DNA from: a virus | Reading direction: 5' to 3' (one strand) | IMG/VR virus record: IMGVR_UViG_3300019849_000002 | Location: 1 to 42,745 of that record | DNA: 42,745 nucleotides | Shown: in pieces, positions 1,996 to 42,745 of the stretch | Layout: each line of letters begins with the position of its first letter | How positions within the stretch are numbered: position 1 is the stretch's first letter | Position numbers and translations under genes: made by a program | Notes under the pieces: generated by a model | Seen by the model: the letters and a program-made list of their open reading frames with translations, nothing else | Databases searched by the model: none | Told to the model about the DNA's origin: nothing

Positions 1996-2312
1996 TAGAG
2001 AGTGTTCACAGCTTTGACTGCAAAGCGAGTTGAAGGAGCACCAACTTTCTTGTATTGGTCCATAACTTCTTCTCCCATGTCTGCAATCATGCGCTTAGTG
2101 TCATAAGTGACACGTCCAGCAACTGCAGTTACAGAGAATGAGTAGCCATTGTGGATAATGTCGCCTTTGCCTTCAAGCATTGGACGTAGTACTGTATCAA
2201 GCTCTTTGATACGACCTTCAATACGCTTCTTTGATTGTGTCAACTCTGCGCGCTCATCCATGAGCGTTTTCAAGTTATCCAAAGAGGCGTTTGCTTGCGA
2301 GTTCTGTGTCAT
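1995..2312 (-). CDS. Hypothetical coiled-coil protein (105 aa)
   Basis: Track ORF with SD AAGGA ~10 nt before ATG 2312. It follows the Cas4-like nuclease gene. Confidence 0.7.
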   Translation of the reverse strand: MTQNSQANASLDNLKTLMDERAELTQSKKRIEGRIKELDTVLRPMLEGKGDIIHNGYSFSVTAVAGRVTYDTKRMIADMGEEVMDQYKKVGAPSTRFAVKAVNTL

Positions 2313-3054
2313 CGTTTCTCAGTCCTTTACTTTCTCTTACTATCATACTACATGCCGCTGTATGCGCGCAGTAGTCACACCCTTTATCCATAAACATGCC
2401 TTCGGCTTTTAGGTCGGCAGGGCTAGCCGCTTCCATGATCCGATTTGCTTTTTCTTCTAGCCTTGTGGCATGATCAGCATCGAACGGAACACGAAACTCT
2501 TGTATTTTCTTATAGTTGCTTGCGTCAACATAGATTAAAAAGCTATCACCAGCTTCTAGTTCATAGTGATGAGCCATTAAATCTGTGTTCTGTATAGTCT
2601 GGTCTATGTGGTTAAGCCTAGGCAAACGGGTAACGTTTGTTCTAGGATCAATGCTCTTAATCTCTAACGCTCCAATAGTTGCTTTTCTAAAGATAGCTCC
2701 ATCAGGAGTGCCGCTTTGATTGTCAGCAGTAAAAGAAACCTGATTAATTCCTGTGTGTCTTAACTCTCCAGCCTTCTTATTCCATCCTTTATTCAGAAGA
2801 TCAATAACCCAAGACTCTACATTGTGCCCTCTTTCAAAGTAGCCCCAATCATCATTTGGATTAACTGTTGTCCCTACTTCTGGGGAGTACCCACTTGCTA
2901 CCAATGCTAATTTATCAAACTTAATCTTGCGAGAACATTGGCCTATCTCAGAGGCGGTAACATATTTAGAACGATCTAATGCCTGACCTGTAATTATAGG
3001 CCATTGCTGAGGCTCTTTGAGCCCATAACCCTTATAGATCATTTCTCTAATCAT
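2275..3054 (-). CDS. Cas4/RecB-like PD-(D/E)XK exonuclease with 4-Cys (Fe-S) cluster
   Basis: Start moved to ATG 3054 (MIREMIYKG). The extra N-terminal codons of track ORF 2275..3141 read through the palindrome whose arm AAGGGAG lies 6 nt before this ATG. Motifs are TPDGAI...ALEIKS (D..ExK) and Cys at GQCSRK plus CDYCAHTAAC (C-x2-C-x5-C). Confidence 0.8.
   Translation of the reverse strand: MIREMIYKGYGLKEPQQWPIITGQALDRSKYVTASEIGQCSRKIKFDKLALVASGYSPEVGTTVNPNDDWGYFERGHNVESWVIDLLNKGWNKKAGELRHTGINQVSFTADNQSGTPDGAIFRKATIGALEIKSIDPRTNVTRLPRLNHIDQTIQNTDLMAHHYELEAGDSFLIYVDASNYKKIQEFRVPFDADHATRLEEKANRIMEAASPADLKAEGMFMDKGCDYCAHTAACSMIVRESKGLRNDDTELASKRLFG
2871..2886. repeat. PAL16 copy
   Basis: tccct-acttct-gggga; inside the nuclease CDS (codes SPEVGT). 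Confidence 0.9.
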
Positions 3055-3060
3055 GGCCAC

Positions 3061-3077
3061 TCCCTTAAAAAAGGGGA
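3061..3077. repeat. PAL16 spacing variant (7-nt spacer)
   Basis: tccct-taaaaaa-gggga; 6 nt upstream of ATG 3054. Confidence 0.75.
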
Positions 3078-3131
3078 CGAAACCGGAGCCTCGCCCCCAA
3101 GTGCTGTGAACTTCCCGCTTGGGATAACTAT

Positions 3132-3177
3132 ATGTTATCATATAGTTAATACGGTGTCAAGTCTTAATTTGCTCTAG
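3132..3177 (-). promoter_or_regulatory. Sigma70-like promoter with conserved upstream box (leftward)
   Basis: Sense strand reads CTAGAGCAAATT-aagac-TTGACA-17 nt-TAACAT. Plus-strand coordinates: box 3166..3177, -35 at 3155..3160, -10 at 3132..3137. A 10-bp hairpin 3125..3148 overlaps the -10. The box and its spacing match the promoter at 9943..9988. Confidence 0.5.
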
Positions 3178-7745: not shown

Positions 7746-8603
7746 TTAGATCAACTCATCGTTGTCGTATTCGACCCACTTACCTTCAAGTTTGAAAGAA
7801 ACAAGCCATTTGTTAGCACGACGAGATTTCGTGCCGATCTTTACAACGCGGGCAAACTCTCCATCAACAATTACAAAATCACCAATTTCGTAATCTCCCT
7901 CTTTTGCAAAGTAATGGTAGCAATTAGAGCTAGCAGCATCATCTTTACCAAACACAACTCCGACAGTGTAAGGCATGACCTCTTCAACAGTCTTTTTCTC
8001 TACTGTTGCAGTGTTTCCATTAGTACCTTTCACCTCCATGACCCAGCGGCCATCTGACATTGTTCCGATATGATGACCGAAAAGCTCTGTCTCGCCATCT
8101 TTCCAAGTGTAAAGTTTAGTAGTCATGTCTTTTTCCTTTTCTTTGACATAGTTTGCAGTTTCGTGTAACTTTTCTAACCATCTTTGCTCTATGATAGAAA
8201 AGTCAACATCTTCAACCATTACAGGTTTTCTTTTTGGACGTACATTCTCAGAATTAGGACAAAAATCAGTAGTACTTCTACCTGTAACAGTAGGTTCTCT
8301 GTGTCTAGGTGAAGTCAGCCCTTTCCTAAGCTCATAAGCATGAATTGTCATGCCATATTTAACAACCTTGTGACGATTGTTCCAAAACGATAACTTAGAA
8401 TTCACGTAGTAGCAAAGAACAGCGTCACACTTAGGACATTCCCTTATGACCTTAAAAGGTGCGCTGGATCCTTCTAACTTCCATAGCTCTCTGTCTTTCA
8501 CCTTCTTTGTTTTACATTTGCCTTTACAATCACAGCCGCATTCTTTTGCTGCACGGCGAGTCATTGTACCTCCGTCCATGTGTTTAATATCTGATACTGT
8601 CAT
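7746..8603 (-). CDS. Hypothetical protein with N-terminal Cys-rich (Zn-binding-like) region
   Basis: 285 aa with CGCDCKGKCK and CPKCDAVLC; SD GAGGTGA before ATG 8603. Confidence 0.75.
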   Translation of the reverse strand: MTVSDIKHMDGGTMTRRAAKECGCDCKGKCKTKKVKDRELWKLEGSSAPFKVIRECPKCDAVLCYYVNSKLSFWNNRHKVVKYGMTIHAYELRKGLTSPRHREPTVTGRSTTDFCPNSENVRPKRKPVMVEDVDFSIIEQRWLEKLHETANYVKEKEKDMTTKLYTWKDGETELFGHHIGTMSDGRWVMEVKGTNGNTATVEKKTVEEVMPYTVGVVFGKDDAASSNCYHYFAKEGDYEIGDFVIVDGEFARVVKIGTKSRRANKWLVSFKLEGKWVEYDNDELI

Positions 8604-8611
8604 TTTTCACC

Positions 8612-8761
8612 TCATGCGTGTGCTGATATTAATATGAAGCCGACAACAGCAGCCAGTATTAGCAATAAGGCACCGCAAGCTAGCAATCCTATTACAACGT
8701 CTGGCCCAAAAAGCATGATCAACGTCATGATTATTAGTACTATCAAGATAGCCCATAACAT
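8612..8761 (-). CDS. Small membrane protein (49 aa), below the ORF-track cut-off
   Basis: MLWAILIVLIIMTLIMLFGPDVVIGLLACGALLLILAAVVGFILISAHA. ATG 8761 lies 8 nt after PAL16 arm TAGGGAGT. Confidence 0.55.
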   Translation of the reverse strand: MLWAILIVLIIMTLIMLFGPDVVIGLLACGALLLILAAVVGFILISAHA

Positions 8762-8769
8762 ATATCTAC

Positions 8770-8785
8770 TCCCTAGCTCTGGGGA
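8770..8785. repeat. PAL16 copy
   Basis: tccct-agctct-gggga; overlaps the 3' end of 8773..9528, 8 nt upstream of ATG 8761. Confidence 0.9.
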
Positions 8786-9528
8786 CTGCCAAGCAAAACT
8801 TGACCGCCCTTGTTAACTGACCTGCCTACGTCTGCACGACCACCAGCCATAGCGCCAGCAGCAGACGCTTTGTCATTGTGGCCCATCTTACCCATAGGTC
8901 CACCGCTACCCAAATGTACACCTAGCTCGCCCAACCTACGAATAGTCAAGTCTGACTTAACCAAAGCCAAGGCGGTACCGCTACCATCCGACGCCAACTC
9001 ATCATTCTCGCAAACCCACGCTTCCATTCTGCCCCACACCGCTCTAGACCAGCTACGATAGAAAGCTACACGCTCTTGTACTAAGTCAACATTGCGGCGG
9101 CTCGCACGTTTGTTCTTGTAGATGCGCCATTCATTGTCTGCCTGTTGTTTAAAGCTTTCCAGCATCCAAACACAGTACTCAACATCCATGTCGCGTCCAA
9201 AATAACGGATATAACGCTTGTTATCTAATGTAGTTATATCCCAATACTGGATACATCCACAAAACTTAGCAACACGCAGTCCCAAAAACCGATCAATAGG
9301 ATGAAATGCAGCTTTGCCGTCACGTGTGCGTCTCCCCATCTCGTCGCGATAACGATACTCATCAGCCTCTACATGAGCTAGATCACTTTCCGATATATCA
9401 TTTTTCTTCATCAGCTTTTGAGCTTTAGCCATACACGCTGCCGCCTCGCTTGCACTAGCACCGCTATCACTAGACTTTGTCAAAAGCGATTTGATTGTCT
9501 CTTTCAGCTTTTCCTTATCCACCGCCAT
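8773..9528 (-). CDS. DUF2786-like protein
   Basis: 251 aa. The N-terminal KSLLTKSSDSGASASEAAACMAKAQKLMKK fits the DUF2786 helical pattern, from memory. Confidence 0.65.
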   Translation of the reverse strand: MAVDKEKLKETIKSLLTKSSDSGASASEAAACMAKAQKLMKKNDISESDLAHVEADEYRYRDEMGRRTRDGKAAFHPIDRFLGLRVAKFCGCIQYWDITTLDNKRYIRYFGRDMDVEYCVWMLESFKQQADNEWRIYKNKRASRRNVDLVQERVAFYRSWSRAVWGRMEAWVCENDELASDGSGTALALVKSDLTIRRLGELGVHLGSGGPMGKMGHNDKASAAGAMAGGRADVGRSVNKGGQVLLGSPQS

Positions 9529-10483: not shown

Positions 10484-11848
10484 TTATTCGACGCTATCGG
10501 TCTCATCCTCAGCTTCACCATCTGTCATGACTTCACCGCTCAGAATGTCCGCAATGATGGCTTCACCATTTGCAATCATTCCGACATGACGGTTCATCAA
10601 GTCGATAACAGCTTGTGCAGCCGATACGCTTTCAGCGTCGTAGCCAAGAACAACATTGTCGTCCTCGTCTACCTCCTCGACAAGAACAGCGCTCAAGATA
10701 TTGAACAGATGGCGCGCTTGCACCGCTGTTTCCATATCTTCAAAGGCTTTCGTCTTAGCAGCGGTGACAAGCTCATCAGCCGCGCCTTTAACACTTTCTG
10801 CCCGAGCATTGTCGCGAGTAACCTGAACAGCGTTTTTAGAGGCTTTCATTGCCTTAATCAACGCCGCGCCAAGCTCATCGCCACGTTCAACAGTAAGAAC
10901 ACCTTTCGGGCTTTCTTCACCGCTTGTCAGTTCAGTGTCAGACGCCAGAACATTCTTATCGCCCCAATTGTCATAATGCAGTCGCGCCAGTTCCTCGGCG
11001 GTATCTGCAAAATCCGGGTCAATATCCAGTTCAGTAACGGCATAGATACCGCCCTCAACCACTGCCGACAAGATTTGACGAAACTTGCCGGTATAGCCTT
11101 CGGACCATTCATCGCCGACACTCTGAGGAATGTCACCACTAATCAGCCCAGCCATGCCAGCAGCCAATGCACCGCGCGATTGTTCAACATGACCGCGAAT
11201 ACTGCTTGCAGTCATCAAATCGCCCGGCACGCTAGCCATCAAATCCGAAAACTCAGCAATACGCGCCAACATGCTCATGTTGCCAGCGTAGTTCTTGCCG
11301 CGTTCCTCGCGTCCTAGCCATTCACTCAGCGCTCCCTCAGTCCGTCCTTTCATCTCATCCCACCAAAGCCCGAAAGCTTTCTTGTGATCAAATTTAGTCC
11401 GAATATTGTTGAACGTCTCAGCTACAGTAACATGCATTTCGCGCGTTTTATCTTCTGCAGCAGCTTTCTGCTCCAAAGCACCTGCCAACTCAATGGCGCT
11501 AGCTTCACCAATTGCTTTATCTTGATCACTCAATTCAGCAAACGTTTTCGGCTCAGGTGCTTTGTTGTCCCCAGCGGTAGGGAATGCGTCACTCTCTTTC
11601 ACATCAGCGACATTGTAGCCCTCGGGCTTCATATCCACGGCGCGGATTGCAGCTTTAATGGCTGGAGCCAATGCAGCCGCCTCTTTACCGTGTGTCCCTT
11701 CAATGTAAGCGATGTAACGCCACTTACCTTTGTCGTTTTTGCCCTTGATAGCACTGACAGAAAGAATGTCCTCGCCCTCTTCAACAGGTTGAACGGCGAT
11801 TACACGGCTTTCTACGATACCATCAAGGTTGATTTCTGTTTTGCTCAT
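10484..11848 (-). CDS. Large acidic early protein (454 aa), first gene of the leftward arm
   Basis: Track ORF, visibly GC-richer than its neighbours, with a very acidic C-terminus (..TDGEAEDETDSVE). No family recognised. Confidence 0.8.
   Translation of the reverse strand: MSKTEINLDGIVESRVIAVQPVEEGEDILSVSAIKGKNDKGKWRYIAYIEGTHGKEAAALAPAIKAAIRAVDMKPEGYNVADVKESDAFPTAGDNKAPEPKTFAELSDQDKAIGEASAIELAGALEQKAAAEDKTREMHVTVAETFNNIRTKFDHKKAFGLWWDEMKGRTEGALSEWLGREERGKNYAGNMSMLARIAEFSDLMASVPGDLMTASSIRGHVEQSRGALAAGMAGLISGDIPQSVGDEWSEGYTGKFRQILSAVVEGGIYAVTELDIDPDFADTAEELARLHYDNWGDKNVLASDTELTSGEESPKGVLTVERGDELGAALIKAMKASKNAVQVTRDNARAESVKGAADELVTAAKTKAFEDMETAVQARHLFNILSAVLVEEVDEDDNVVLGYDAESVSAAQAVIDLMNRHVGMIANGEAIIADILSGEVMTDGEAEDETDSVE
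11568..11583. repeat. PAL16 copy
   Basis: tcccc-agcggt-aggga; inside CDS 10484..11848 (FPTAGD). Confidence 0.9.
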
Positions 11849-12386: not shown

Positions 12387-12587
12387 ATGTCATACGTTAA
12401 GAGAGAAAATGTGCCTATTTTGTTCTCATTGGGATTTGCTAAGTTATTGATTTTATTGAATTTTTTTAAGTCACTGCTTGCCGGTTTTGCAGGTCCCCCC
12501 TATGGGGGGAGGGACCTAGCAAGACTTCAGACCGGCACAAGACGCTGTGACCTCGAAAATGATTTTGAGGCGGTGATTTATGCCTAG
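12387..12587 (+). CDS. Doubtful small ORF (66 aa)
   Basis: SD GAAAGGAAAAAG before ATG 12387, and an 8-nt overlap with the next ORF. However, base composition switches from AT-rich to GC-rich mid-ORF (~12485), so it may be spurious or chimeric. Confidence 0.3.
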   Translation: MSYVKRENVPILFSLGFAKLLILLNFFKSLLAGFAGPPYGGRDLARLQTGTRRCDLENDFEAVIYA

Positions 12588-13029
12588 ACCAAAATTCAAG
12601 GATCGCCGTCGGGGCCTCCAAAGACCGGAGCCGGATGAAGTCCCTGCTGAGAAGCCGCTGACGCCAGACCCTGAGACCGACGCAGGGACGCATACAGTCG
12701 CACCTCAAGAGATTCCGCCACATGTCTGGGCATTGCTCCAAGAGAGCGGCGAGCGGGCCGCTATGAGGCTGCTGGAGATGCTGAGCGCTGACCGCTTCCA
12801 GTCCTACTCTGCTGCGGTGCGTGCTCGCCTCATCGATCTAGCCTTGACCCGCGCTTACGGTCTGCCTGTCCGTCGCTCTGTCTCTGTGGACCTCACCAGC
12901 AACGACGCCGACGCCGTTGCAGCCGCGCTCAATGATCTGACCTCGAAACTACCCGAGCGAGCCGCGCAGGGACGCGCTCAGGGCTCTGATGGGCAGGTGA
13001 TAGATATCACCCCACCAAACGACACATGA
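12580..13029 (+). CDS. GC-rich hypothetical protein (149 aa); possible small terminase by position
   Basis: SD GAGG ~10 nt upstream. The N-terminus is Pro/Arg-rich. LALTRAYGLP loosely recalls the LDRxxGKP motif of some TerS proteins. It lies upstream of terL. Confidence 0.6.
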   Translation: MPRPKFKDRRRGLQRPEPDEVPAEKPLTPDPETDAGTHTVAPQEIPPHVWALLQESGERAAMRLLEMLSADRFQSYSAAVRARLIDLALTRAYGLPVRRSVSVDLTSNDADAVAAALNDLTSKLPERAAQGRAQGSDGQVIDITPPNDT

Positions 13030-13037
13030 CGTTCAGC

Positions 13038-13068
13038 GCGTCCCTGTGCGACTTATGACTAGGGACGC
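13038..13068. repeat. PAL16-like, long-loop variant
   Basis: gcgtccct-15 nt-agggacgc (8-bp arms), just after the stop of 12580..13029. Confidence 0.7.
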
Positions 13069-13072
13069 ACAT

Positions 13073-13087
13073 TCCCTTGACTAGGGA
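13073..13087. repeat. PAL16 spacing variant (5-nt spacer)
   Basis: tccct-tgact-aggga; intergenic. Confidence 0.7.
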
Positions 13088-13094
13088 CTATCAT

Positions 13095-13111
13095 TCCCTA
13101 CTGATTAGGGA
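13095..13111. repeat. PAL16 spacing variant (7-nt spacer)
   Basis: tccct-actgatt-aggga; intergenic. Confidence 0.7.
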
Positions 13112-13138
13112 GTAGTTTAGTCACTCAACTATCATCAG

Positions 13139-13154
13139 TCCCTATCGTTAGGGA
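13139..13154. repeat. PAL16 copy
   Basis: tccct-atcgtt-aggga; intergenic. Confidence 0.9.
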
Positions 13155-13185
13155 ATTGAACTATCTCAACCGAGATAGTTCAATT
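13154..13185. repeat. Perfect 14-bp-stem hairpin/palindrome
   Basis: aattgaactatctc-aacc-gagatagttcaatt. Confidence 0.95.
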
Positions 13186-13237
13186 ATTCAACTAAATTAG
13201 TTCAATGATTAAACTATTCGGACGCACATAGTTGAAT
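13155..13237. repeat. Cluster of five TAGTT(C/G)AAT 9-mers in both orientations
   Basis: 13155..13163(-), 13176..13184(+), 13186..13194(-), 13198..13206(+), 13229..13237(+). Confidence 0.85.
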
Positions 13238-13356
13238 CGTTAAACGTGTTGTTGACCCCCCGCCCCCGGGCCTTGGGTCCCTCCGATAATTTTAGAGTAC
13301 CCCCTGTGCGAGAAAACGTTCTGTTTCAAAAATTTTTTGCCGATCGACTTTTTGAC

Positions 13357-13372
13357 TCCCTACTATCAGGGA
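13357..13372. repeat. PAL16 copy
   Basis: tccct-actatc-aggga; intergenic, flanked by A/T tracts. Confidence 0.9.
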
Positions 13373-13412
13373 AAATAAAAAATTTTTTAAAATTTACTAT
13401 TTTTGGTCTGGG

Positions 13413-13430
13413 GAAAGCGGCATGAAGATT
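13413..13430 (+). repeat. 18-bp GAAAGCGG box, copy 2
   Basis: gaaagcggcatgaagatt; 5 nt upstream of TTGACT (13436). Confidence 0.8.
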
Positions 13431-13435
13431 TGCCC

Positions 13436-13464
13436 TTGACTTAAGACTTAAATTATGCAATAAA
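13436..13464 (+). promoter_or_regulatory. Weak candidate promoter for the packaging operon
   Basis: TTGACT, 17-nt spacer, then TGcAATAAA. The -10 is poor. Confidence 0.3.
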
Positions 13465-13487
13465 AACAACAACTTACGGCGCCTAGA

Positions 13488-13505
13488 GAAAGCGGAATTA
13501 AGATT
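13488..13505 (+). repeat. 18-bp GAAAGCGG box, copy 3
   Basis: gaaagcggaattaagatt (16/18 identical to copy 2). Confidence 0.8.
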
Positions 13506-13522
13506 ATCTCTTAACCACACAA

Positions 13523-13538
13523 TCCCCACCACTAGGGA
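13523..13538. repeat. PAL16 copy
   Basis: tcccc-accact-aggga; arm TAGGGAGT lies 10 nt upstream of ATG 13549. Confidence 0.9.
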
Positions 13539-13548
13539 GTACTTTCTA

Positions 13549-13767
13549 ATGTTCCTGAAACGCTGCATTCCGACCATAATCAGTGCTAATTTTGTTATTG
13601 ACAAAGCCTTGCTAGATAACGATATTATAGTGCCGATTACCGTCTATTTTGGGCTGGATGGAGAAGAGTGTGAAAAAGAGGAGGCGGTGACGTTTGTTGC
13701 TGGCAGCGATGACGAGGGATGGTTTGTTGACTATTTGGAAAACTTTTCAGAGCAACGGGTGAATTAG
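13549..13767 (+). CDS. Hypothetical acidic protein (72 aa)
   Basis: Track ORF; its stop overlaps the terL GTG (TAGTG). Confidence 0.65.
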   Translation: MFLKRCIPTIISANFVIDKALLDNDIIVPITVYFGLDGEECEKEEAVTFVAGSDDEGWFVDYLENFSEQRVN

Positions 13768-15212
13768 TGGACCTATCATTTCTAAGTCCCCAACAGCGGG
13801 GAATGGCTGAACCGATAATTCAGCAGTGCGCCATAAGCAGAGTATGGTTCATTGAAAACGTCCTCAAAGTCGAGAAAATTGAAGATTGGCAGCTTAAAGT
13901 ACTGAACGACTTAGATAATGGTATCTCTAAGATTTCAATACGTTCTGGTCACGGAGTAGGAAAAACCACTCTTTGCTCATGGTGCGCTCTACACTTTTTG
14001 TTATTCAGAAACGACGTTAAAGTTATCGTAACATCTCCATCGCAAAAGCAGTTGTCAGATGGTTTGATACCGGAGATTCAGAAATGGATTTCTAGACTGC
14101 CGCCTTGGATGAGTAGACAATTAACGACAACATCTGAGCGCGTTACGCGAGCGCCAGATACAATGAACCATTTTATATCGTTTCGTACCGCCAGAAAAGA
14201 GAACCCAGAAGCTTTGGCCGGTGTACATGCTGAGAGCGTTCTGATTTTGGTAGATGAGGCTTCTGGTGTAGAAGAGGTGATCTATGAAACAGGACAAGGT
14301 GCTCTATCAACGGAAGGCGCTATTGCTATTCTCATCGGGAACCCTACTAGACCATCTGGCTTCTTTTTCAAAACCCACACTGAGCTATCGGATTTGTGGA
14401 AAACATATAAGGTGGCGTGCCACGACAGTTCACGTGTATCAGAAGACTACATCGAAACGCAGAGACGGACTTATGGAGTTGACAGTCGTGAGTACAAGGT
14501 GCGCGTTCTCGGGGAATTTCCAGACAGTGGTGCCGACGCAGTTATACCTAGGGAATATGTTGAAAGTGCGCATGGTCGTGATATTACTCCCCACCGTGGG
14601 GGACTTGTTTGGGGCGTTGACCCGGGCAGGGGCGGTGACCCTAGCGGGTTTGTCGCGCGCCGTCCGAACGTTATTGAGAGTATAGTAGAGCTACGTTATG
14701 ATGACACTATGCGCGTTGTTGGATGGGTTAAAAAACGCTGGGATGAGTTACCTCCGGCAAAACGGCCCGAAACTATATTCGTTGACGCGATCGGTCTTGG
14801 TGCTGGTGTTGCTGACCGTCTTGCTGAGCTTGGGCTCCCTGTTATTGCTGTTAATGTATCTGAGCTTGCAAGTGGGAGTGAGCGTTATGTGCGCCTTCGA
14901 GACGAATTGTGGTATATGATAAGAGATTGGCTTGAGCCTCATGACGTTAGTATGCCGTCAATTGAAGCTGAGCCGTTGGTTGCTAAGATGACACACGAAT
15001 TATGTAGTGTTGAGAGTGAGATTATGAGTAACGGCAAAGTGCAAGTAGAGAGTAAGGAGCGTATGAAAAAGCGTGGTCTGAAATCTCCTAACTTGGCCGA
15101 TGCTTTGGCATTGACTTTTGCGCACGGTGGCGCTGTCATGAACGGAAGTTGGCCCACAGATTGGGGAAAACTGCCAGATTTGGATAATTACAAAGCGCCA
15201 CACATAATTTAA
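13767..15212 (+). CDS. terL: Terminase large subunit
   Basis: 481 aa. Motifs are Walker A SGHGVGKT, Walker B LILVDEAS, and nuclease-domain acidic motifs GVDPGRGGD and FVDAIGLGAGV. The GTG start at 13767 is assumed; ATG 13803 is an alternative. Confidence 0.88.
   Translation: MDLSFLSPQQRGMAEPIIQQCAISRVWFIENVLKVEKIEDWQLKVLNDLDNGISKISIRSGHGVGKTTLCSWCALHFLLFRNDVKVIVTSPSQKQLSDGLIPEIQKWISRLPPWMSRQLTTTSERVTRAPDTMNHFISFRTARKENPEALAGVHAESVLILVDEASGVEEVIYETGQGALSTEGAIAILIGNPTRPSGFFFKTHTELSDLWKTYKVACHDSSRVSEDYIETQRRTYGVDSREYKVRVLGEFPDSGADAVIPREYVESAHGRDITPHRGGLVWGVDPGRGGDPSGFVARRPNVIESIVELRYDDTMRVVGWVKKRWDELPPAKRPETIFVDAIGLGAGVADRLAELGLPVIAVNVSELASGSERYVRLRDELWYMIRDWLEPHDVSMPSIEAEPLVAKMTHELCSVESEIMSNGKVQVESKERMKKRGLKSPNLADALALTFAHGGAVMNGSWPTDWGKLPDLDNYKAPHII
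13787..13802. repeat. PAL16 copy
   Basis: tcccc-aacagc-gggga; 5' end of terL (SPQQRG). Confidence 0.9.
14588..14603. repeat. PAL16 copy
   Basis: tcccc-accgtg-gggga; inside terL (TPHRGG). Confidence 0.9.
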
Positions 15213-18708: not shown

Positions 18709-20831
18709 GTAGAAAAGACGAATTTGGTATAACAAAAGATGAAGCCGTAAATGAGCTTTCTTACGTTGTTGAGGAAGCTCATCAATTCATGGTTTCAGAG
18801 TTTAACCAAGAATGGGAGATAGCAGAAGCTTACTATGCTGGTAAGTGTGATTTGCCTTATGAAAAAGGCAGATCAAATATGGTCAAAACAGAATGCAGAG
18901 ACGTAATTAGAGCTTTGATGCCTAACATTATGAGAATAATGTTTCAGTCAAAGAAGATGGTATCTTATATTCCTTCTACAATTCGTCAAGCTAGCATTTG
19001 TGAGCAGCAAGCTCACTGGATAAACCAGCATTTTATTACTAACGGCGGTTATATGACTGTGTATAGCGCCGCTCTTGAAAGCCTTAAAATGAAGGCTGGT
19101 CCTGTAAAGACTACATGGATTGAGAATGCTGAACCTGAGTTTTTTAAAGTTACCGGAGCAACTAGGGCAGAGGTAGTTTCTTATCAAGAGATGCCTGACG
19201 TTATAATTGAAGAAGTTGAAGAGAGGTCCCCGACAGTAGGGACTGAGATGCTCTATGACATTACAGGCACTCGATATTTTGAAAATGGCAAAATTGAGTG
19301 TTGTCCCTTTCCAATGTATGAATTTTTCATGGAAAGAGATGCCAGTAATCTAGAAGACTATGTGCATGGACATAGACGTAGCGTCACTGTTGGCGAAGCT
19401 ATTGAGATGGGGCTAGAGTATGATAATTGGCGGCAGCTTGATAACGATAACCCAGAAGAAAACGACGCTGCTAATTCGTCTAATATCAGACGTGGTTACC
19501 CTGTAAATCAAGACGATGAGCGTGACGTTGATATTATCAATCATGAATTTTTACTGACAGAGGCTTATTGTAAATATGATATGGATGGTGATGGCGTTCC
19601 AGAGCGCTATGTATTCTTTTTGGGCGGTACTACTTACACATACCTGCACCATGAAAGAGTGGAGGATTTTTGCATTGACATTGTATCAGTCGATCCCGTC
19701 CCATTTACAGTCATCGGTCGCTCAGTCATCGACATTACAAAGCAAAGCCAAGATAATGAAACATCAATACTCCGGGCGATTGTTGACAACGCGCACATTG
19801 CGAACAATCCGAGACCCACGGGTGATCCAACGCAAGTAAATTTCAATGATTTGATGAATAATGCTATTGGTGCTCCAATTCGCGTTAAGGGCAATTATCA
19901 AGTAGGATTTACTGAAACCCCTTTTACTGCTGCTGGTCTATTGCCATTTTTAGAATGGATGGAAAGAGACGCAGAGATGCGTGTTGGTGTCACTAAGGCT
20001 GCTAGAGGCTTAGACCCTGACGCAATGCAGTCCACAGACAAACAAGCTGTACTGAATACAATTGAGCTATCTCAAGGTCAAGTAGAGCTTATTGTTAGAA
20101 ATATAATTGAGACTGGCATTATTCCTATATTTAGACGTATGATGCGTCTATCTTTGCGTCATATGCCCAGACAACAATTGCTGTTGTTTAGAGGCGCTGT
20201 TGTGCCTGTTGATATTAGCATGTTTGACGCAGATATGGGGTGCCAACCAAACGTAGGGTTAGGTACTGGTGCTCCTGAACAAAAATTGCAGACTTTGCAG
20301 TTTGTTTATGGAGAACAAAAAGAGATGATAGCCCAATTCGGGCTAGACAATCCTTTTACATCTTTGTCTCAGATGTATAATTGTCTAGAAGATATGTTAG
20401 AGCTAGGAGGCATTGATAACGTAGGTCGTTATTTCAATGTTGTTACTCGTGACATGGAACAATTTATCGCTCAACAGCAAGCTAGAGCTGCTGCGCAGCG
20501 TGAACAACAGCAGCAGCAGCAGCAGCCTATGGACCCAAGTAGAGCGCTTGTCCTCACAGAACAGACAAAAAGCCGCGTAAAACAATTAGAAATTATGGCT
20601 AACCAGCGAGCAAAAGATCAAGAGCTTACTCAGCGTTCTATTGAGAAAGCAGAAGAATTTGACATTAAACGTGATGAGTTAGCTCAAAGACGTGTTATTG
20701 AGCTAGCAAAAATAGGAGCCAGCGAGCTAAATGCATCCGTCAGACGAGAACAGTCCGCAACTACCCCCGAAAGACAAAATGCGGCATCCGAATCCTCAAG
20801 TACAGAGAGCAATCAAAGCTCTACGGGATAG
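18705..20831 (+). CDS. Portal protein
   Basis: 708 aa, immediately upstream of scaffold and capsid genes, with a long helical Gln/Glu-rich C-terminus. The call rests on size, position and general look, not a named motif. Confidence 0.7.
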   Translation: MSRKDEFGITKDEAVNELSYVVEEAHQFMVSEFNQEWEIAEAYYAGKCDLPYEKGRSNMVKTECRDVIRALMPNIMRIMFQSKKMVSYIPSTIRQASICEQQAHWINQHFITNGGYMTVYSAALESLKMKAGPVKTTWIENAEPEFFKVTGATRAEVVSYQEMPDVIIEEVEERSPTVGTEMLYDITGTRYFENGKIECCPFPMYEFFMERDASNLEDYVHGHRRSVTVGEAIEMGLEYDNWRQLDNDNPEENDAANSSNIRRGYPVNQDDERDVDIINHEFLLTEAYCKYDMDGDGVPERYVFFLGGTTYTYLHHERVEDFCIDIVSVDPVPFTVIGRSVIDITKQSQDNETSILRAIVDNAHIANNPRPTGDPTQVNFNDLMNNAIGAPIRVKGNYQVGFTETPFTAAGLLPFLEWMERDAEMRVGVTKAARGLDPDAMQSTDKQAVLNTIELSQGQVELIVRNIIETGIIPIFRRMMRLSLRHMPRQQLLLFRGAVVPVDISMFDADMGCQPNVGLGTGAPEQKLQTLQFVYGEQKEMIAQFGLDNPFTSLSQMYNCLEDMLELGGIDNVGRYFNVVTRDMEQFIAQQQARAAAQREQQQQQQQPMDPSRALVLTEQTKSRVKQLEIMANQRAKDQELTQRSIEKAEEFDIKRDELAQRRVIELAKIGASELNASVRREQSATTPERQNAASESSSTESNQSSTG
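19227..19242. repeat. PAL16 copy
   Basis: tcccc-gacagt-aggga; inside portal (SPTVGT). Confidence 0.9.
20508..20525 (+). repeat. (CAG)6 microsatellite, poly-Q in portal
   Basis: cagcagcagcagcagcag encodes QQQQQQ. Confidence 0.9.
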
Positions 20832-20985
20832 TGGAGACCTTAAATTACTCTTGACAGAACTTGAAAAAGAGTATATAGAAATGATAGCTGGGTCCGCCCA
20901 TTCTGACGTAGAAATCAGAGAAGCAGCCTACAGTAAGATTGCACTAGGCAGAGACCTTTTAACATTGGTGGAAAACTATGAATAA
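20779..20985 (+). CDS. Doubtful small ORF between portal and scaffold
   Basis: Track ORF 20731..20985 overlaps the portal 3' end, and no convincing SD precedes any in-frame ATG (20779, 20881). The gap also holds TTGACA-15/17-TATATA/TATAGA (from 20853). Confidence 0.3.
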   Translation: MRHPNPQVQRAIKALRDSGDLKLLLTELEKEYIEMIAGSAHSDVEIREAAYSKIALGRDLLTLVENYE

Positions 20986-22051
20986 ACCAGTAGAGACAGA
21001 AGACGGCGCAAGTCTCCATAACATTGCGGCTTCCCTTATTTCTCCGGTAGTCCCTGACGATGGGGACAAGAAGTCTAAGGACAAAGAGCCTGAGCCATCC
21101 GACCTTGAAGATAATCTTGATGATAATGAAGATTATCTTGACGATCAAGACGATCTTGACGATCAAGACGATCAAGACGATCAAGACGATCAAGACGATC
21201 AAGAGGATGAACCCGAATCACATGATGATGACGAATACTTCGACATTCAAGATACTGACCTAATCAGCGTTAAAGTTGACGGTCAGGAAAAAGAAGTCAG
21301 TATCAAAGACCTCAAAGCGGCTTATTCGCTTAACGACGCCACAGAAGGGCGTCTACAAGAGGTCACAGAGGCAAGAAAAGAAGCGCTGTCTCTGAACACA
21401 CAGCTTATGGAAAAGCTGTATGCGGAAGAACTTGTTGTTACTCAAGCTTTACAGGATCTGGAGGAAGGCAACCTCTACAGAGAGATGATTCCCAAACCGC
21501 CTGAAAGCTTGAAGAACTCCGACCCCAAGAGGTATTTACGACATAGCGAAGCATACCAGCAAGATCAGGATCGTATTGCTGCTGCTAAGAAAGCAATTGA
21601 AGATAAAATAGGAGAGCTACAAAAAGCTCGGACTGACCGTCTTCAAGAATATGCCGAAAAAGCAGGGCCTATCATAGCTCAAGCAATACCACAACTTGCT
21701 GATAGGGATGAGAAAGTAAGAAACGCTTATTTTGGCGAAATGTCAAAAGTGGCGCAAGCTTACGGATACAGTGAACAAGAGATTAACAATGCTCTTGATC
21801 CTCGTATGTTCATTTTAGTGAGAGACGCTATGGAGTACCAAAAACTTCTTGGGAGGACTAACGAAGTCCCTGATGTTAGGGACTTGTCCGGTCAGCAACA
21901 GAAAAAGGTCCGCAGGTTGCGTTCTGGCAACACTAAGGGAAAGACCTTGGCACGTAAGAACGCGAAAGCTCAACAAGCCAAGACTGCGCGTGCTAAAAAG
22001 ACAGGAAGTGTAAAAGACGTAGCAGCTACCTTGGTGACATCCAAAGGATAA
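20978..22051 (+). CDS. Scaffolding protein
   Basis: 357 aa between portal and capsid, with an acidic repeat N-terminus, a coiled-coil middle and a basic C-terminus. Confidence 0.7.
   Translation: MNKPVETEDGASLHNIAASLISPVVPDDGDKKSKDKEPEPSDLEDNLDDNEDYLDDQDDLDDQDDQDDQDDQDDQEDEPESHDDDEYFDIQDTDLISVKVDGQEKEVSIKDLKAAYSLNDATEGRLQEVTEARKEALSLNTQLMEKLYAEELVVTQALQDLEEGNLYREMIPKPPESLKNSDPKRYLRHSEAYQQDQDRIAAAKKAIEDKIGELQKARTDRLQEYAEKAGPIIAQAIPQLADRDEKVRNAYFGEMSKVAQAYGYSEQEINNALDPRMFILVRDAMEYQKLLGRTNEVPDVRDLSGQQQKKVRRLRSGNTKGKTLARKNAKAQQAKTARAKKTGSVKDVAATLVTSKG
21051..21066. repeat. PAL16 copy
   Basis: tccct-gacgat-gggga; inside scaffold (VPDDGD). Confidence 0.9.
21140..21202 (+). repeat. 9-bp tandem repeat GACGATCWW x7 (five perfect GACGATCAA at 21158..21202)
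   Basis: Encodes DDQ/DDL repeats; degenerate flanking units at 21131..21139 and 21203..21211. Confidence 0.95.
21867..21882. repeat. PAL16 copy
   Basis: tccct-gatgtt-aggga; inside scaffold (VPDVRD). Confidence 0.9.
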
Positions 22052-42600: not shown

Positions 42601-42745
42601 GGATTATATACCTCCCAATCTTCTGCGAACATATCGCCATTGCTACAAAGCCAAGGAATAAGATCATCTCCGGGTGTTACACAATAAATGTAACGGCCTG
42701 TCATTTTACTTTTAGGACTAGGCTCCTGCATTTTGATATAGACGA
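42597..42745 (-). CDS. DUF2829-like (Tad2-like) protein, C-terminal part (runs off the window; same gene as 1..189)
   Basis: Stop TGA at 42599..42597 overlaps ATG 42600 of the next gene. 42627..42745 duplicates 1..119. Confidence 0.6.
   Translation of the reverse strand, partial: VYIKMQEPSPKSKMTGRYIYCVTPGDDLIPWLCSNGDMFAEDWEVYNP
42627..42745. repeat. Terminal overlap, copy 2 (identical to 1..119)
   Basis: Verbatim repeat of the first 119 nt. Confidence 0.97.

Follow-up and report, generated by a model that had tools for sequence, protein, structure and literature searches.

The stretch of DNA analyzed here (the window; IMG/VR virus record IMGVR_UViG_3300019849_000002, 42,745 nucleotides) contains at positions 13030–13548 a region, referred to below as the hub, that lies immediately upstream of the genes for DNA packaging and is tentatively read as a control region for packaging start or for genome ends, fused to the promoter region of the terminase operon. 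A first-pass annotation of the sequence had held the hub to be more than a simple promoter, a judgment borne out by the fact that its modules and their order are kept in ~20 related genomes. The same annotation had proposed either a packaging (pac) site or a replication origin, and this proposal stands in part: the position adjacent to the gene for the large terminase subunit (TerL), the fixed orientation of a conserved core and the precedent of Sinorhizobium phage phiM5 fit packaging, and the iterons and A/T stretch fit an origin, but the idea that short 9-mers in the hub are sites for the small terminase subunit (TerS) finds no support.

The hub was described at the outset as non-coding and packed with repeats, and every feature then listed is found in the sequence, with corrections given below. 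No other non-coding stretch of the genome is as large or as rich in repeats: the combined recurrence of direct and inverted 8-mers is 94, compared with a genome mean of ~19 for segments of equal size and a maximum of 42 in 500 shuffles, and the segments at 12.85–13.05 kb, comprising the hub and its left edge, top the genome by this measure. No open reading frame (ORF) of note is present, as had been stated; there are only two mechanical ORFs, neither of which has a homologue in any relative. Searches of the region for tRNA or tmRNA found none, and Rfam gave no family at gathering score, a single miRNA match at E = 0.2 being judged chance. The end of the hub is 219 bp from the TerL start with ORF72 alone intervening, a placement kept in 20 relatives, and the modules run in the order PAL-type palindromes, four iterons, core, A/T tracts and promoter-proximal repeats, ORF72 and TerL. 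The features of the region are as follows (PAL16 denotes the palindrome TCCCY-N6-RGGGA).

12580..13029, plus strand: conserved small ORF (149 amino acids) that flanks the hub; TerS candidate by position only
13038..13111, unstranded: PAL-variant cluster, with an inverted repeat, a 22-bp tandem repeat and the PAL sites at 13073 and 13095
13113..13247, unstranded: iteron array, with four 19-bp palindromes TAGTT-N9-AACTA, a PAL16 site at 13139–13154 and a hairpin at 13154–13185
13246..13425, plus strand: mechanical ORF over the hub, 59 amino acids
13253..13322, plus strand: asymmetric core of ~70 bp, with a C-run (GACCCCCCGCCCCC), TTGGG, a TTTATTT-like tract and TACCCCCTGTGCGAGAAAACG
13326..13604, minus strand: mechanical ORF over the hub, 92 amino acids
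13327..13396, unstranded: A/T tracts, with CAAAAATTTTTTG (13327–13339), a canonical PAL16 (13357–13372) and an A/T-only run (13372–13396)
13408..13440 and 13483..13515, plus strand: two 33-nt imperfect direct repeats, 76% identical, each containing GAAAGCGG
13523..13538, unstranded: canonical PAL16 whose 3' arm, TAGGGAG, gives the Shine-Dalgarno sequence of ORF72
13549..13767, plus strand: ORF72, a small acidic protein, whose stop codon overlaps the GTG start of TerL (TAGTG)
13767..15212, plus strand: TerL (Pfam Terminase_6N, E = 2e-7; phrog_2, E = 1e-48)

A core linked to the terminase gene

The hub was compared with ~20 fetched uncultured loci whose TerL is 62–77% identical to that of the window. 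In all but one of these a homologue of the small ORF (43–60% identity) is followed by 350–1360 bp of mostly non-coding DNA and then by TerL, and within this DNA the order is a lineage-specific PAL-type palindrome, 3–6 copies of TAGTTTAACGTTAAACTA, the ~70-bp core, A/T-rich tandem units, a sigma-70-type promoter, a PAL site over the ribosome-binding site, and the first gene. An nhmmer profile of the core gave 21 matches in the 3.06 Mb of fetched loci, one per locus (the window and 20 others), and each lies on the TerL strand, 222–853 bp upstream of TerL, and belongs to a genome whose TerL identity is at least 62%; the core is an asymmetric signal of fixed orientation that is conserved together with the terminase. 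As a linear signal it consists of the C-run, the TTTATTT-like tract (an A/T-rich tract that in the window reads ATAATTTTA) and then ACCCCCTGTG / GACCACCCCCTGTG, and in the core alignment (A4) C4 and TTT are invariant and ACC..C is near-invariant. The C/G block noted in the first-pass annotation, GACCCCCCGCCCCCGGG, is indeed present, at 13254–13270, one nucleotide away from where it had been placed. Among the C5+ runs of the genome, four of nine fall between 12495 and 13300.

RNAalifold run on 19 cores gave 0 conserved pairs, and since no conserved secondary structure is found the core would act as a double-stranded sequence signal; its interpretation as a hairpin, terminator or structured RNA was rejected because no conserved pairing was found. 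The core is kept where the iterons are replaced, by TGTGATCACA in locus L086 and by GTGCGTCAGCGCAC-type repeats in L005. It is kept as well in L002, where microsatellites and other palindromes stand in place of the iterons, and this although the small ORF of L002 has moved downstream of the core to a position directly before TerL. Persistence despite iteron swaps and movement of the ORF makes the core the element most tightly tied to the terminase gene. The iterons in the 5' half of the hub on one hand, and the core with the A/T tracts in its 3' half on the other, behave as separable evolutionary modules, and the hub region is a mosaic junction with moron insertions (L002, L019 and L021). The L002 hub (8490–8870 and 9130–9220) contains ~60 copies of GAGAGC, ~24 of GTAG and four tandem AAAAAATTTTGAGAATTTTC units, and these microsatellites may be either real or an assembly artefact.

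Iterons, palindromes and A/T tracts

The four 19-bp palindromes of the iteron array begin at 13113, 13176, 13198 and 13229, with spacings of 63, 22 and 31 bp, and constitute a set of the kind by which iteron origins are recognized (at least three phased repeats of 17–22 bp). The TAGTT(C/G)AAT 9-mers of the annotation, all five of which are confirmed at 13155–13237, are half-sites of these palindromes; the genome has six copies of TAGTTSAAT compared with 1.29 expected, five of them in this interval. The annotated hairpin at 13154–13185 does have a perfect 14-bp stem (DNA fold −12.2 kcal/mol, z = −10.2) and is made of two outward-facing iteron half-sites. In each of 11 relatives the 18-bp form TAGTTTAACGTTAAACTA is present in 3–6 copies that are confined to the hub. 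Adjacent iteron spacings (n = 111, from 56 loci) cluster at 22 and 31–32 bp, with a phase coherence R = 0.70 at a period of 10.5 bp, and by this helical phase coherence the iterons lie on one face of the helix.

Comparison with known sites, made by eye, found no fit to those of ParB/parS, CtrA, LexA, IHF, DnaA or Fis. A ParB-parS centromere was rejected, with no ParB domain in the proteins scanned; parS is a 16-bp palindrome of the type TGTTNCACGTGAAACA, and by our own comparison the iteron of the relatives is like it at 12 of 16 positions. The conserved part of the iteron is the outer TAGTT/AACTA, and the window sites are 19 bp long with variable centers, unlike parS.

The iterons are found far beyond the relatives of the window. 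A scan of IMG/VR for exact matches to the 18-mer returned 51 contigs, most of them with 2–4 phased copies, and 36 of the 51, several of which are ~55 kb, have the flanking gene set of a single group that is tied by blastn of one locus to the cultured roseophages CRP-13, CRP-2 and CRP-603. In this group the array is at the junction of divergent early and late arms, where TGTGATCACA repeats and a C-rich block flank it, and terS is 4.7 kb away. The corresponding region of CRP-13 (MW514247: 54058–55022, with an exact 18-bp site at 54700) is like that of the window in having the identical TAGTTTAACGTTAAACTA, in arrays of 2–4 at ~31 bp, with an adjoining C-rich block, and TGTGATCACA repeats of the CRP-13 type are also present in the window-type relatives L086, L004 and L166. 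It is unlike the window in that TerL, TerS and the neighboring genes are unrelated, block and iterons come in the opposite order, the C-rich block cannot be aligned with the window core, and the distance to terS is as given above. The TerL of CRP-13 is 55% identical to that of phage phiM6 and has no similarity to the window TerL, nor is any similarity detectable between the small subunits of CRP-13 and the window. A third type is represented by a 61-kb contig that encodes a portal_3 portal; ~2.3 kb upstream of its TerL an iteron is followed by a poly-C block, and its TerL and TerS have no detectable similarity to those of the window. In this 61-kb type (L196) a single ORF at 180–2087 on the minus strand carries Phage_portal_3 and a C-terminal Acb1 anti-CBASS domain (E = 4e-36).

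The proposal that the 9-mers are TerS recognition sites is not supported by these results, as arrays of the 18-bp palindrome also occur in phages with unrelated TerL and TerS; the factor that binds the iterons is unlikely to be TerS, because iterons occur with unrelated terminases. When all ORFs located up to 5 kb from 62 arrays were compared by BLAST clustering and hidden Markov models (HMMs), no protein family was common to the phage groups, and candidates for the iteron binder are a protein of the host, a phage protein that is very small or evolves fast, and one whose gene is distant from the hub. In all three lineages it is the main non-coding junction that contains the 18-bp palindrome. 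Since it is not accompanied by any phage protein, it may be a landing pad for a conserved host protein of marine and freshwater Alphaproteobacteria or for a tiny unannotated phage factor. It is conceivable, but on balance doubtful, that TAGTTTAACGTTAAACTA, usually with a poly-C block, is a portable, terminase-independent cis-element that was recruited independently for the start of replication or packaging; the lineages that would use it are then at least three, unrelated and aquatic (SU10/phiM5-like phages, HMO-2011-type phages such as CRP-13, and the 61-kb portal_3 type). That phages whose packaging and replication genes are unrelated have an exact 18-bp palindrome array in common is the unusual part of these results.

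Of the six PAL16 sites reported for the hub, the three at 13139, 13357 and 13523 are canonical and stand, whereas those at 13038, 13073 and 13095 are spacing variants: the sites at 13073 and 13095 have spacers of 5 and 7 nt, and 13038–13068 is an 8-bp inverted repeat with a 15-nt spacer, GCGTCCCT-N15-AGGGACGC (z = −4.2). The interval 13056–13099 consists of two 22-bp tandem units, TGACTAGGGAC...CATTCCCT. A PAL site directly before the first gene 3' of the hub, as seen at ORF72, is also present in L004, L005 and L086. PAL16 is dispersed over the whole genome (e.g. at 523, 1379 and 42359), with 47 copies compared with 0.8 expected, of which by our gene model 33 are wholly coding (in all frames), 2 span gene boundaries and 12 are intergenic; the spacer is 6 nt nearly throughout, and the copies are unusually evenly spaced (mean ~900 bp, no gap above 2 kb). 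Position 5 (T/C) and position 12 (A/G) vary independently, and both arms are affected, so that PAL16 reads as a double-stranded DNA site and not as an RNA hairpin. Relatives L004, L007, L009–L012, L019 and L166 have PAL variants of their own, e.g. TCCCC-N6-GGGGA, at 1.4–3.1 per kb; the closest TerL relative, L002, and the roseophages (L303 being CRP-13) have none.

Two pairs of exact 10-mers are also present in the hub, the pair GGACGCACAT at 13063 and 13220 that was already known and a second, CCCTGTGCGA, at 13042 and 13302; with ~0.13 such pairs expected per 519 bp by our estimate, one could be chance, and two together are unlikely to be. The long A/T tract likewise exists but had been placed one nucleotide off, being a 25-bp A/T-only run at 13372–13396. 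It is the longest in the genome, where the next is 14 bp, and lies 80–125 bp from the last iteron with the GC-rich core between. At the position of the A/T tracts the relatives have 1–4 tandem units of ~30–40 bp, of the type GAGAAAYGTTCTG...AAAAATTTTTT. The GAAAGCGG boxes are confirmed as the exact cores (13413 and 13488) of the 33-nt direct repeats, which make up the promoter-proximal part of the hub, each terminating in a −35-like TTGAC or TTAAC. The relatives have a good sigma-70-type promoter at this position (TTGACA-17-TATCAAGACAAC in L004 and L005). A scan of the window for consensus promoters found none inside the hub, the nearest match being TTGACA-17-GATATT at 13598–13626, inside ORF72.

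Genome ends and competing readings of the hub

The sole cultured member of the TerL clade is phiM5 (MF074189, a LUZ24-like podovirus), for which the GenBank annotation gives a direct terminal repeat of 357 bp. The repeat begins inside a small upstream ORF; its end is 32 bp beyond a poly-C tract and 36 bp short of the TerL ATG, with the sequence ...ACCCCCCCCCGCCC...GGGGGCAGCGCATATATC|TGCACCCTGTC at this point. Like the window, phiM5 has in succession a small upstream ORF, a poly-C tract, an A/T stretch, ACCCTGT and TerL; its annotated repeat ends between the A/T stretch and ACCCTGT, and the block order (C-run, A/T, ACCC(CC)TGT) is that of the core. Unlike the window it has no TAGTT iterons and no PAL sites, the distance to TerL is 36 bp in phiM5 compared with ~470 bp in the window, and the two small ORFs are not detectably homologous. 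The wider clade gives independent support: of 145 loci with TerL 40–48% identical, 61 have a C6+ run in the 800 bp upstream of TerL and on its strand (background 0.044 per 800 bp), and many of these form a conserved C-run/G-run element of their own. In the unrelated HMO-2011-type phage phiM6 the pac cut assigned by PhageTerm is in a large non-coding region upstream of terS-terL, ~10 bp from TACACCCCC. These are hints, not proof, that C-rich elements in such hubs mark packaging cuts.

The packaging reading best explains the core, with its fixed orientation and its link to the terminase, together with the precedents of phiM5 and phiM6, and it is adopted here with due reserve. By this mechanism an array of proteins would assemble on the helically phased palindromes (iterons and PAL-type sites) and bend the DNA, aided by the A/T tracts; the nucleoprotein complexes of packaging, for example at lambda cosB, SPP1 pac and P1 pac, typically have A/T tracts and binding sites in phase. 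The terminase would be positioned on the adjacent asymmetric core (C-run, TTTATTT-like tract and ACCCCCTGTG) and, by analogy with phiM5, might cut in or beside the A/T stretch of the core, near 13285–13297, which would bound a short direct terminal repeat on its right. Packaging would then proceed rightwards, in the direction of TerL and the structural genes. The iterons would be a swappable module independent of the terminase, bound probably not by TerS and perhaps by a host protein or an unrecognized small phage protein, and the array may serve replication as well.

Several observations weigh against this reading. The phiM5 repeat is known from a GenBank annotation and is a single data point at 42% TerL identity. 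The core is not significantly similar to the motif at the phiM5 end (nhmmer E ~1–6; 52 of 1000 shuffles equal it), only the C-run aligns, and a profile built from the 40–48% clade matches neither phiM5 nor the window; homology of the core to the phiM5 end, to position 1 of phiM6 or to the roseophage C-rich block is not shown, only composition and position being in agreement. The small ORF has no detectable TerS features, and the iterons occur in phages with unrelated terminases, in CRP-13 4.7 kb from terS. Contig ends in the hub were considered as physical ends and rejected: ends of IMG/VR, JGI and Logan contigs fall inside iterons, TGTGATCACA units or A/T tandem units, and because they lie inside repeat units the simpler reading is that they are assembly breaks. 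A 41.4-kb contig that begins in the hub has no terminal overlap.

Well-known regulatory regions offer points of comparison for both packaging and replication. Lambda cosB (R sites, IHF), the P1 pac hexamer arrays and SPP1 pacL/pacR are adjacent to the terminase genes, as is the hub, and in them too several phased protein-binding repeats flank an asymmetric cut region with bendable A/T DNA (for the hub, predicted). In those systems, however, it is the small terminase subunit of the phage itself that binds the repeats, whereas the hub repeats occur with unrelated terminases, and no TerS fold is recognized in the ORF neighboring the hub. Hubs of this type resemble lambda ori and the theta plasmids in having three to six dyad repeats of 18–19 bp, ~2 or 3 helical turns apart, with an A/T-rich tract in the vicinity; in contrast to those, no cognate initiator gene contains or adjoins the hub iterons, which are separated from the A/T tract by a conserved block rich in GC.

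A replication origin is the main competing reading, though a doubtful one, in which an initiator would bind the phased dyad iterons and the A/T tract at 13327–13396 would unwind and load a replisome of the minus-arm PrimPol-helicase and Pol A. The four 19-bp dyad-symmetric repeats at helical spacings, with the longest A/T run of the genome downstream, have the layout of lambda ori and the iteron plasmids, and iteron types are swapped between otherwise similar genomes in the manner of origin cassettes. The hub is near the point at which the two transcription arms diverge and coincides with the cumulative GC-skew minimum, but the skew switch coincides with the switch in gene orientation and so is not independent evidence. 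HMO-2011-type phages carry their iterons at the early/late junction, beside early genes and at the same 4.7 kb from terS, and the PrimPol-helicase of the genome has an unassigned C-terminal region of ~150 residues, the corresponding region of the P4 alpha protein being the one that binds the origin. On the other hand, Pfam and PHROGs find no initiator-type gene (lambda O, RepA or DnaA-like) in the minus arm or among the flanking genes, genomes with the same iteron have almost no early genes in common, window-type and HMO-2011-type hubs have no nearby protein family in common even at the HMM level, and CRP-13 is without a homologue of the window PrimPol-helicase; the placement of the GC-rich core of ~70 bp between iterons and A/T tract is likewise unexpected of an origin.

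It is unlikely that the hub is a region of transcriptional control, with the palindromes as operators for one or more dimeric phage or host regulators that time the ORF72-TerL late operon and divergent early promoters. Such a role would account for the PAL sites and the promoter-proximal repeats: the sigma-70-type promoter of the relatives is at the 3' limit of the hub, their ribosome-binding site is overlapped by a PAL site, the dispersed PAL16 copies (47 compared with 0.8) are enriched in intergenic DNA and at gene boundaries and are denser in the hub, and the TGTGATCACA repeats of the roseophages overlap with TTGTGA hexamers of −35 type that immediately precede the first early gene. But it leaves unexplained the 70-bp asymmetric core, which is conserved above any promoter element, and the iterons are 200–400 bp upstream of the candidate promoter, beyond the core, which is far for classical operators; in addition, Pfam and PHROG scans detect no helix-turn-helix or repressor-type gene, and the window hub has no consensus promoter inside it. 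That the core is an intrinsic terminator of the small-ORF transcript, and the remainder non-functional repeat debris at a junction of module recombination, is very improbable. In some relatives (e.g. L009 and L011) the C-run is able to pair with a G-run farther downstream, after which comes TTTATTT, and the junction is mosaic with inserted morons (L002, L019 and L021), but the 19 cores examined with RNAalifold have no pairing in common, the window core folds weakly (z = −2.1), a terminator scan of the plus strand found none, and an exact 18-bp palindrome conserved across unrelated phages with helical phasing is not expected of debris. The functions of the hub in packaging, replication and control may also coexist.

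Neighboring genes and wider significance

The window is a circularly assembled phage genome of ~42.6 kb, with bases 1–119 duplicated at 42627–42745; this 119-bp overlap, 13 kb from the hub, looks by its length and position like a leftover of circular assembly. The plus arm (12109–37156) contains the small ORF, the hub, ORF72, TerL and genes for an SU10-type portal and an SU10-type capsid protein, and the minus arm runs from 11848 downward across the record origin to 37140, with genes for an SNF2 helicase, a RecE/Cas4-like exonuclease, a family A DNA polymerase, RusA and the PrimPol-helicase. A blastn search of the hub region against 50,697 phage records gave no match, and no cultured relative is found at the DNA level; the closest cultured TerL is that of phiM5, at 42% identity, and TerL has many uncultured relatives on contigs of ~40 kb. 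ORF72, which is translationally coupled to TerL, has no homologue in any relative and is unique to the window genome.

The label of TerS that had been given to the small ORF at 12580–13029 finds no support in Pfam, PHROG, PDB-sequence or Foldseek comparisons and depends on gene order alone; that it is the terminase small subunit is a guess from position. A PDB profile search and an AF2/Foldseek comparison aimed at a TerS fold gave nothing, as did hhalign against phiM5 ORF1.2 and CRP-13 TerS, and tblastn against cultured phages gave no match. Homologues of 43–60% identity adjoin the hub in 12 relatives, and 86 are present in the protein database, all of them unnamed and lacking a Pfam domain. 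The N-terminus is variable, basic and predicted to be disordered, and an 85-residue helical core is conserved and is helical in the AF2 model (mean pLDDT 69). No gene of the genome is richer in GC than the small ORF (GC 0.62 and, at third codon positions, GC3 0.63, compared with gene medians of 0.42 and 0.35), and its homologues are likewise GC-rich relative to their own genomes. Contigs with such homologues (P0122–P0206) are mostly 0.5–3 kb, and one variant occurs on 37 contigs of which none exceeds 3.3 kb; these short contigs are consistent with assemblies that break systematically at the repeats of the hub. The leader of the small ORF contains, at 12478–12545, a strong nested hairpin whose stem is C6/G6 (GGTCCCCCCTATGGGGGGAGGGACC; DNA fold z = −5.4), and L004 has a similar element at 8871–8903.

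The first gene of the minus arm (10484–11848, minus strand) encodes an acidic protein of 454 residues without a Pfam or PHROG match; an HMM made from nine relatives, in which the gene has the same position beside the hub region, matches it at E = 7e-20, and the family is conserved beside the hub only in the window-type group. Two adjacent overlapping ORFs on the minus strand (1995–2312 and 2275–3141) both match the RecE-like/Cas4-type exonuclease phrog_434, covering the C-terminal and N-terminal parts of the family, respectively, and may be a split or frameshifted gene. The ORF at 201–440 matches MazG-like pyrophosphohydrolase PHROGs. In L003 (1–351) and L004 (17–367) there is a protein with a dGTP diphosphohydrolase N-terminal domain (PF18909), a domain associated with 2-aminoadenine genome pathways. 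The interval 20800–21100, which covers the end of the portal gene, an intergenic gap and the start of the ORF at 20978–22051, is second in the genome for repeat density, mainly through direct 8-mer repeats.

Regions of the kind represented by the hub are well known from lambda cosB, P1 pac, the T7 ends and lambda ori, but this family of elements is undescribed in the literature searched, which has no mention of the hub motifs or of the non-coding junction of HMO-2011-type phages. The ~40-kb group is abundant in viromes of marine and fresh waters, as are the HMO-2011-type phages, and we know of no account of how either starts replication or packaging. The conserved core provides a concrete candidate for the packaging signal of the group and a landmark by which its metagenomic genomes can be oriented and completed. 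The hub repeats appear to break assemblies, which would explain the many contigs that end there. Because the iterons are common to the cultured roseophage CRP-13 (grown on RCA strain FZCC0023), their binding partner and function are directly testable, and if that partner is a host protein it would represent a common dependency of several dominant phage lineages.

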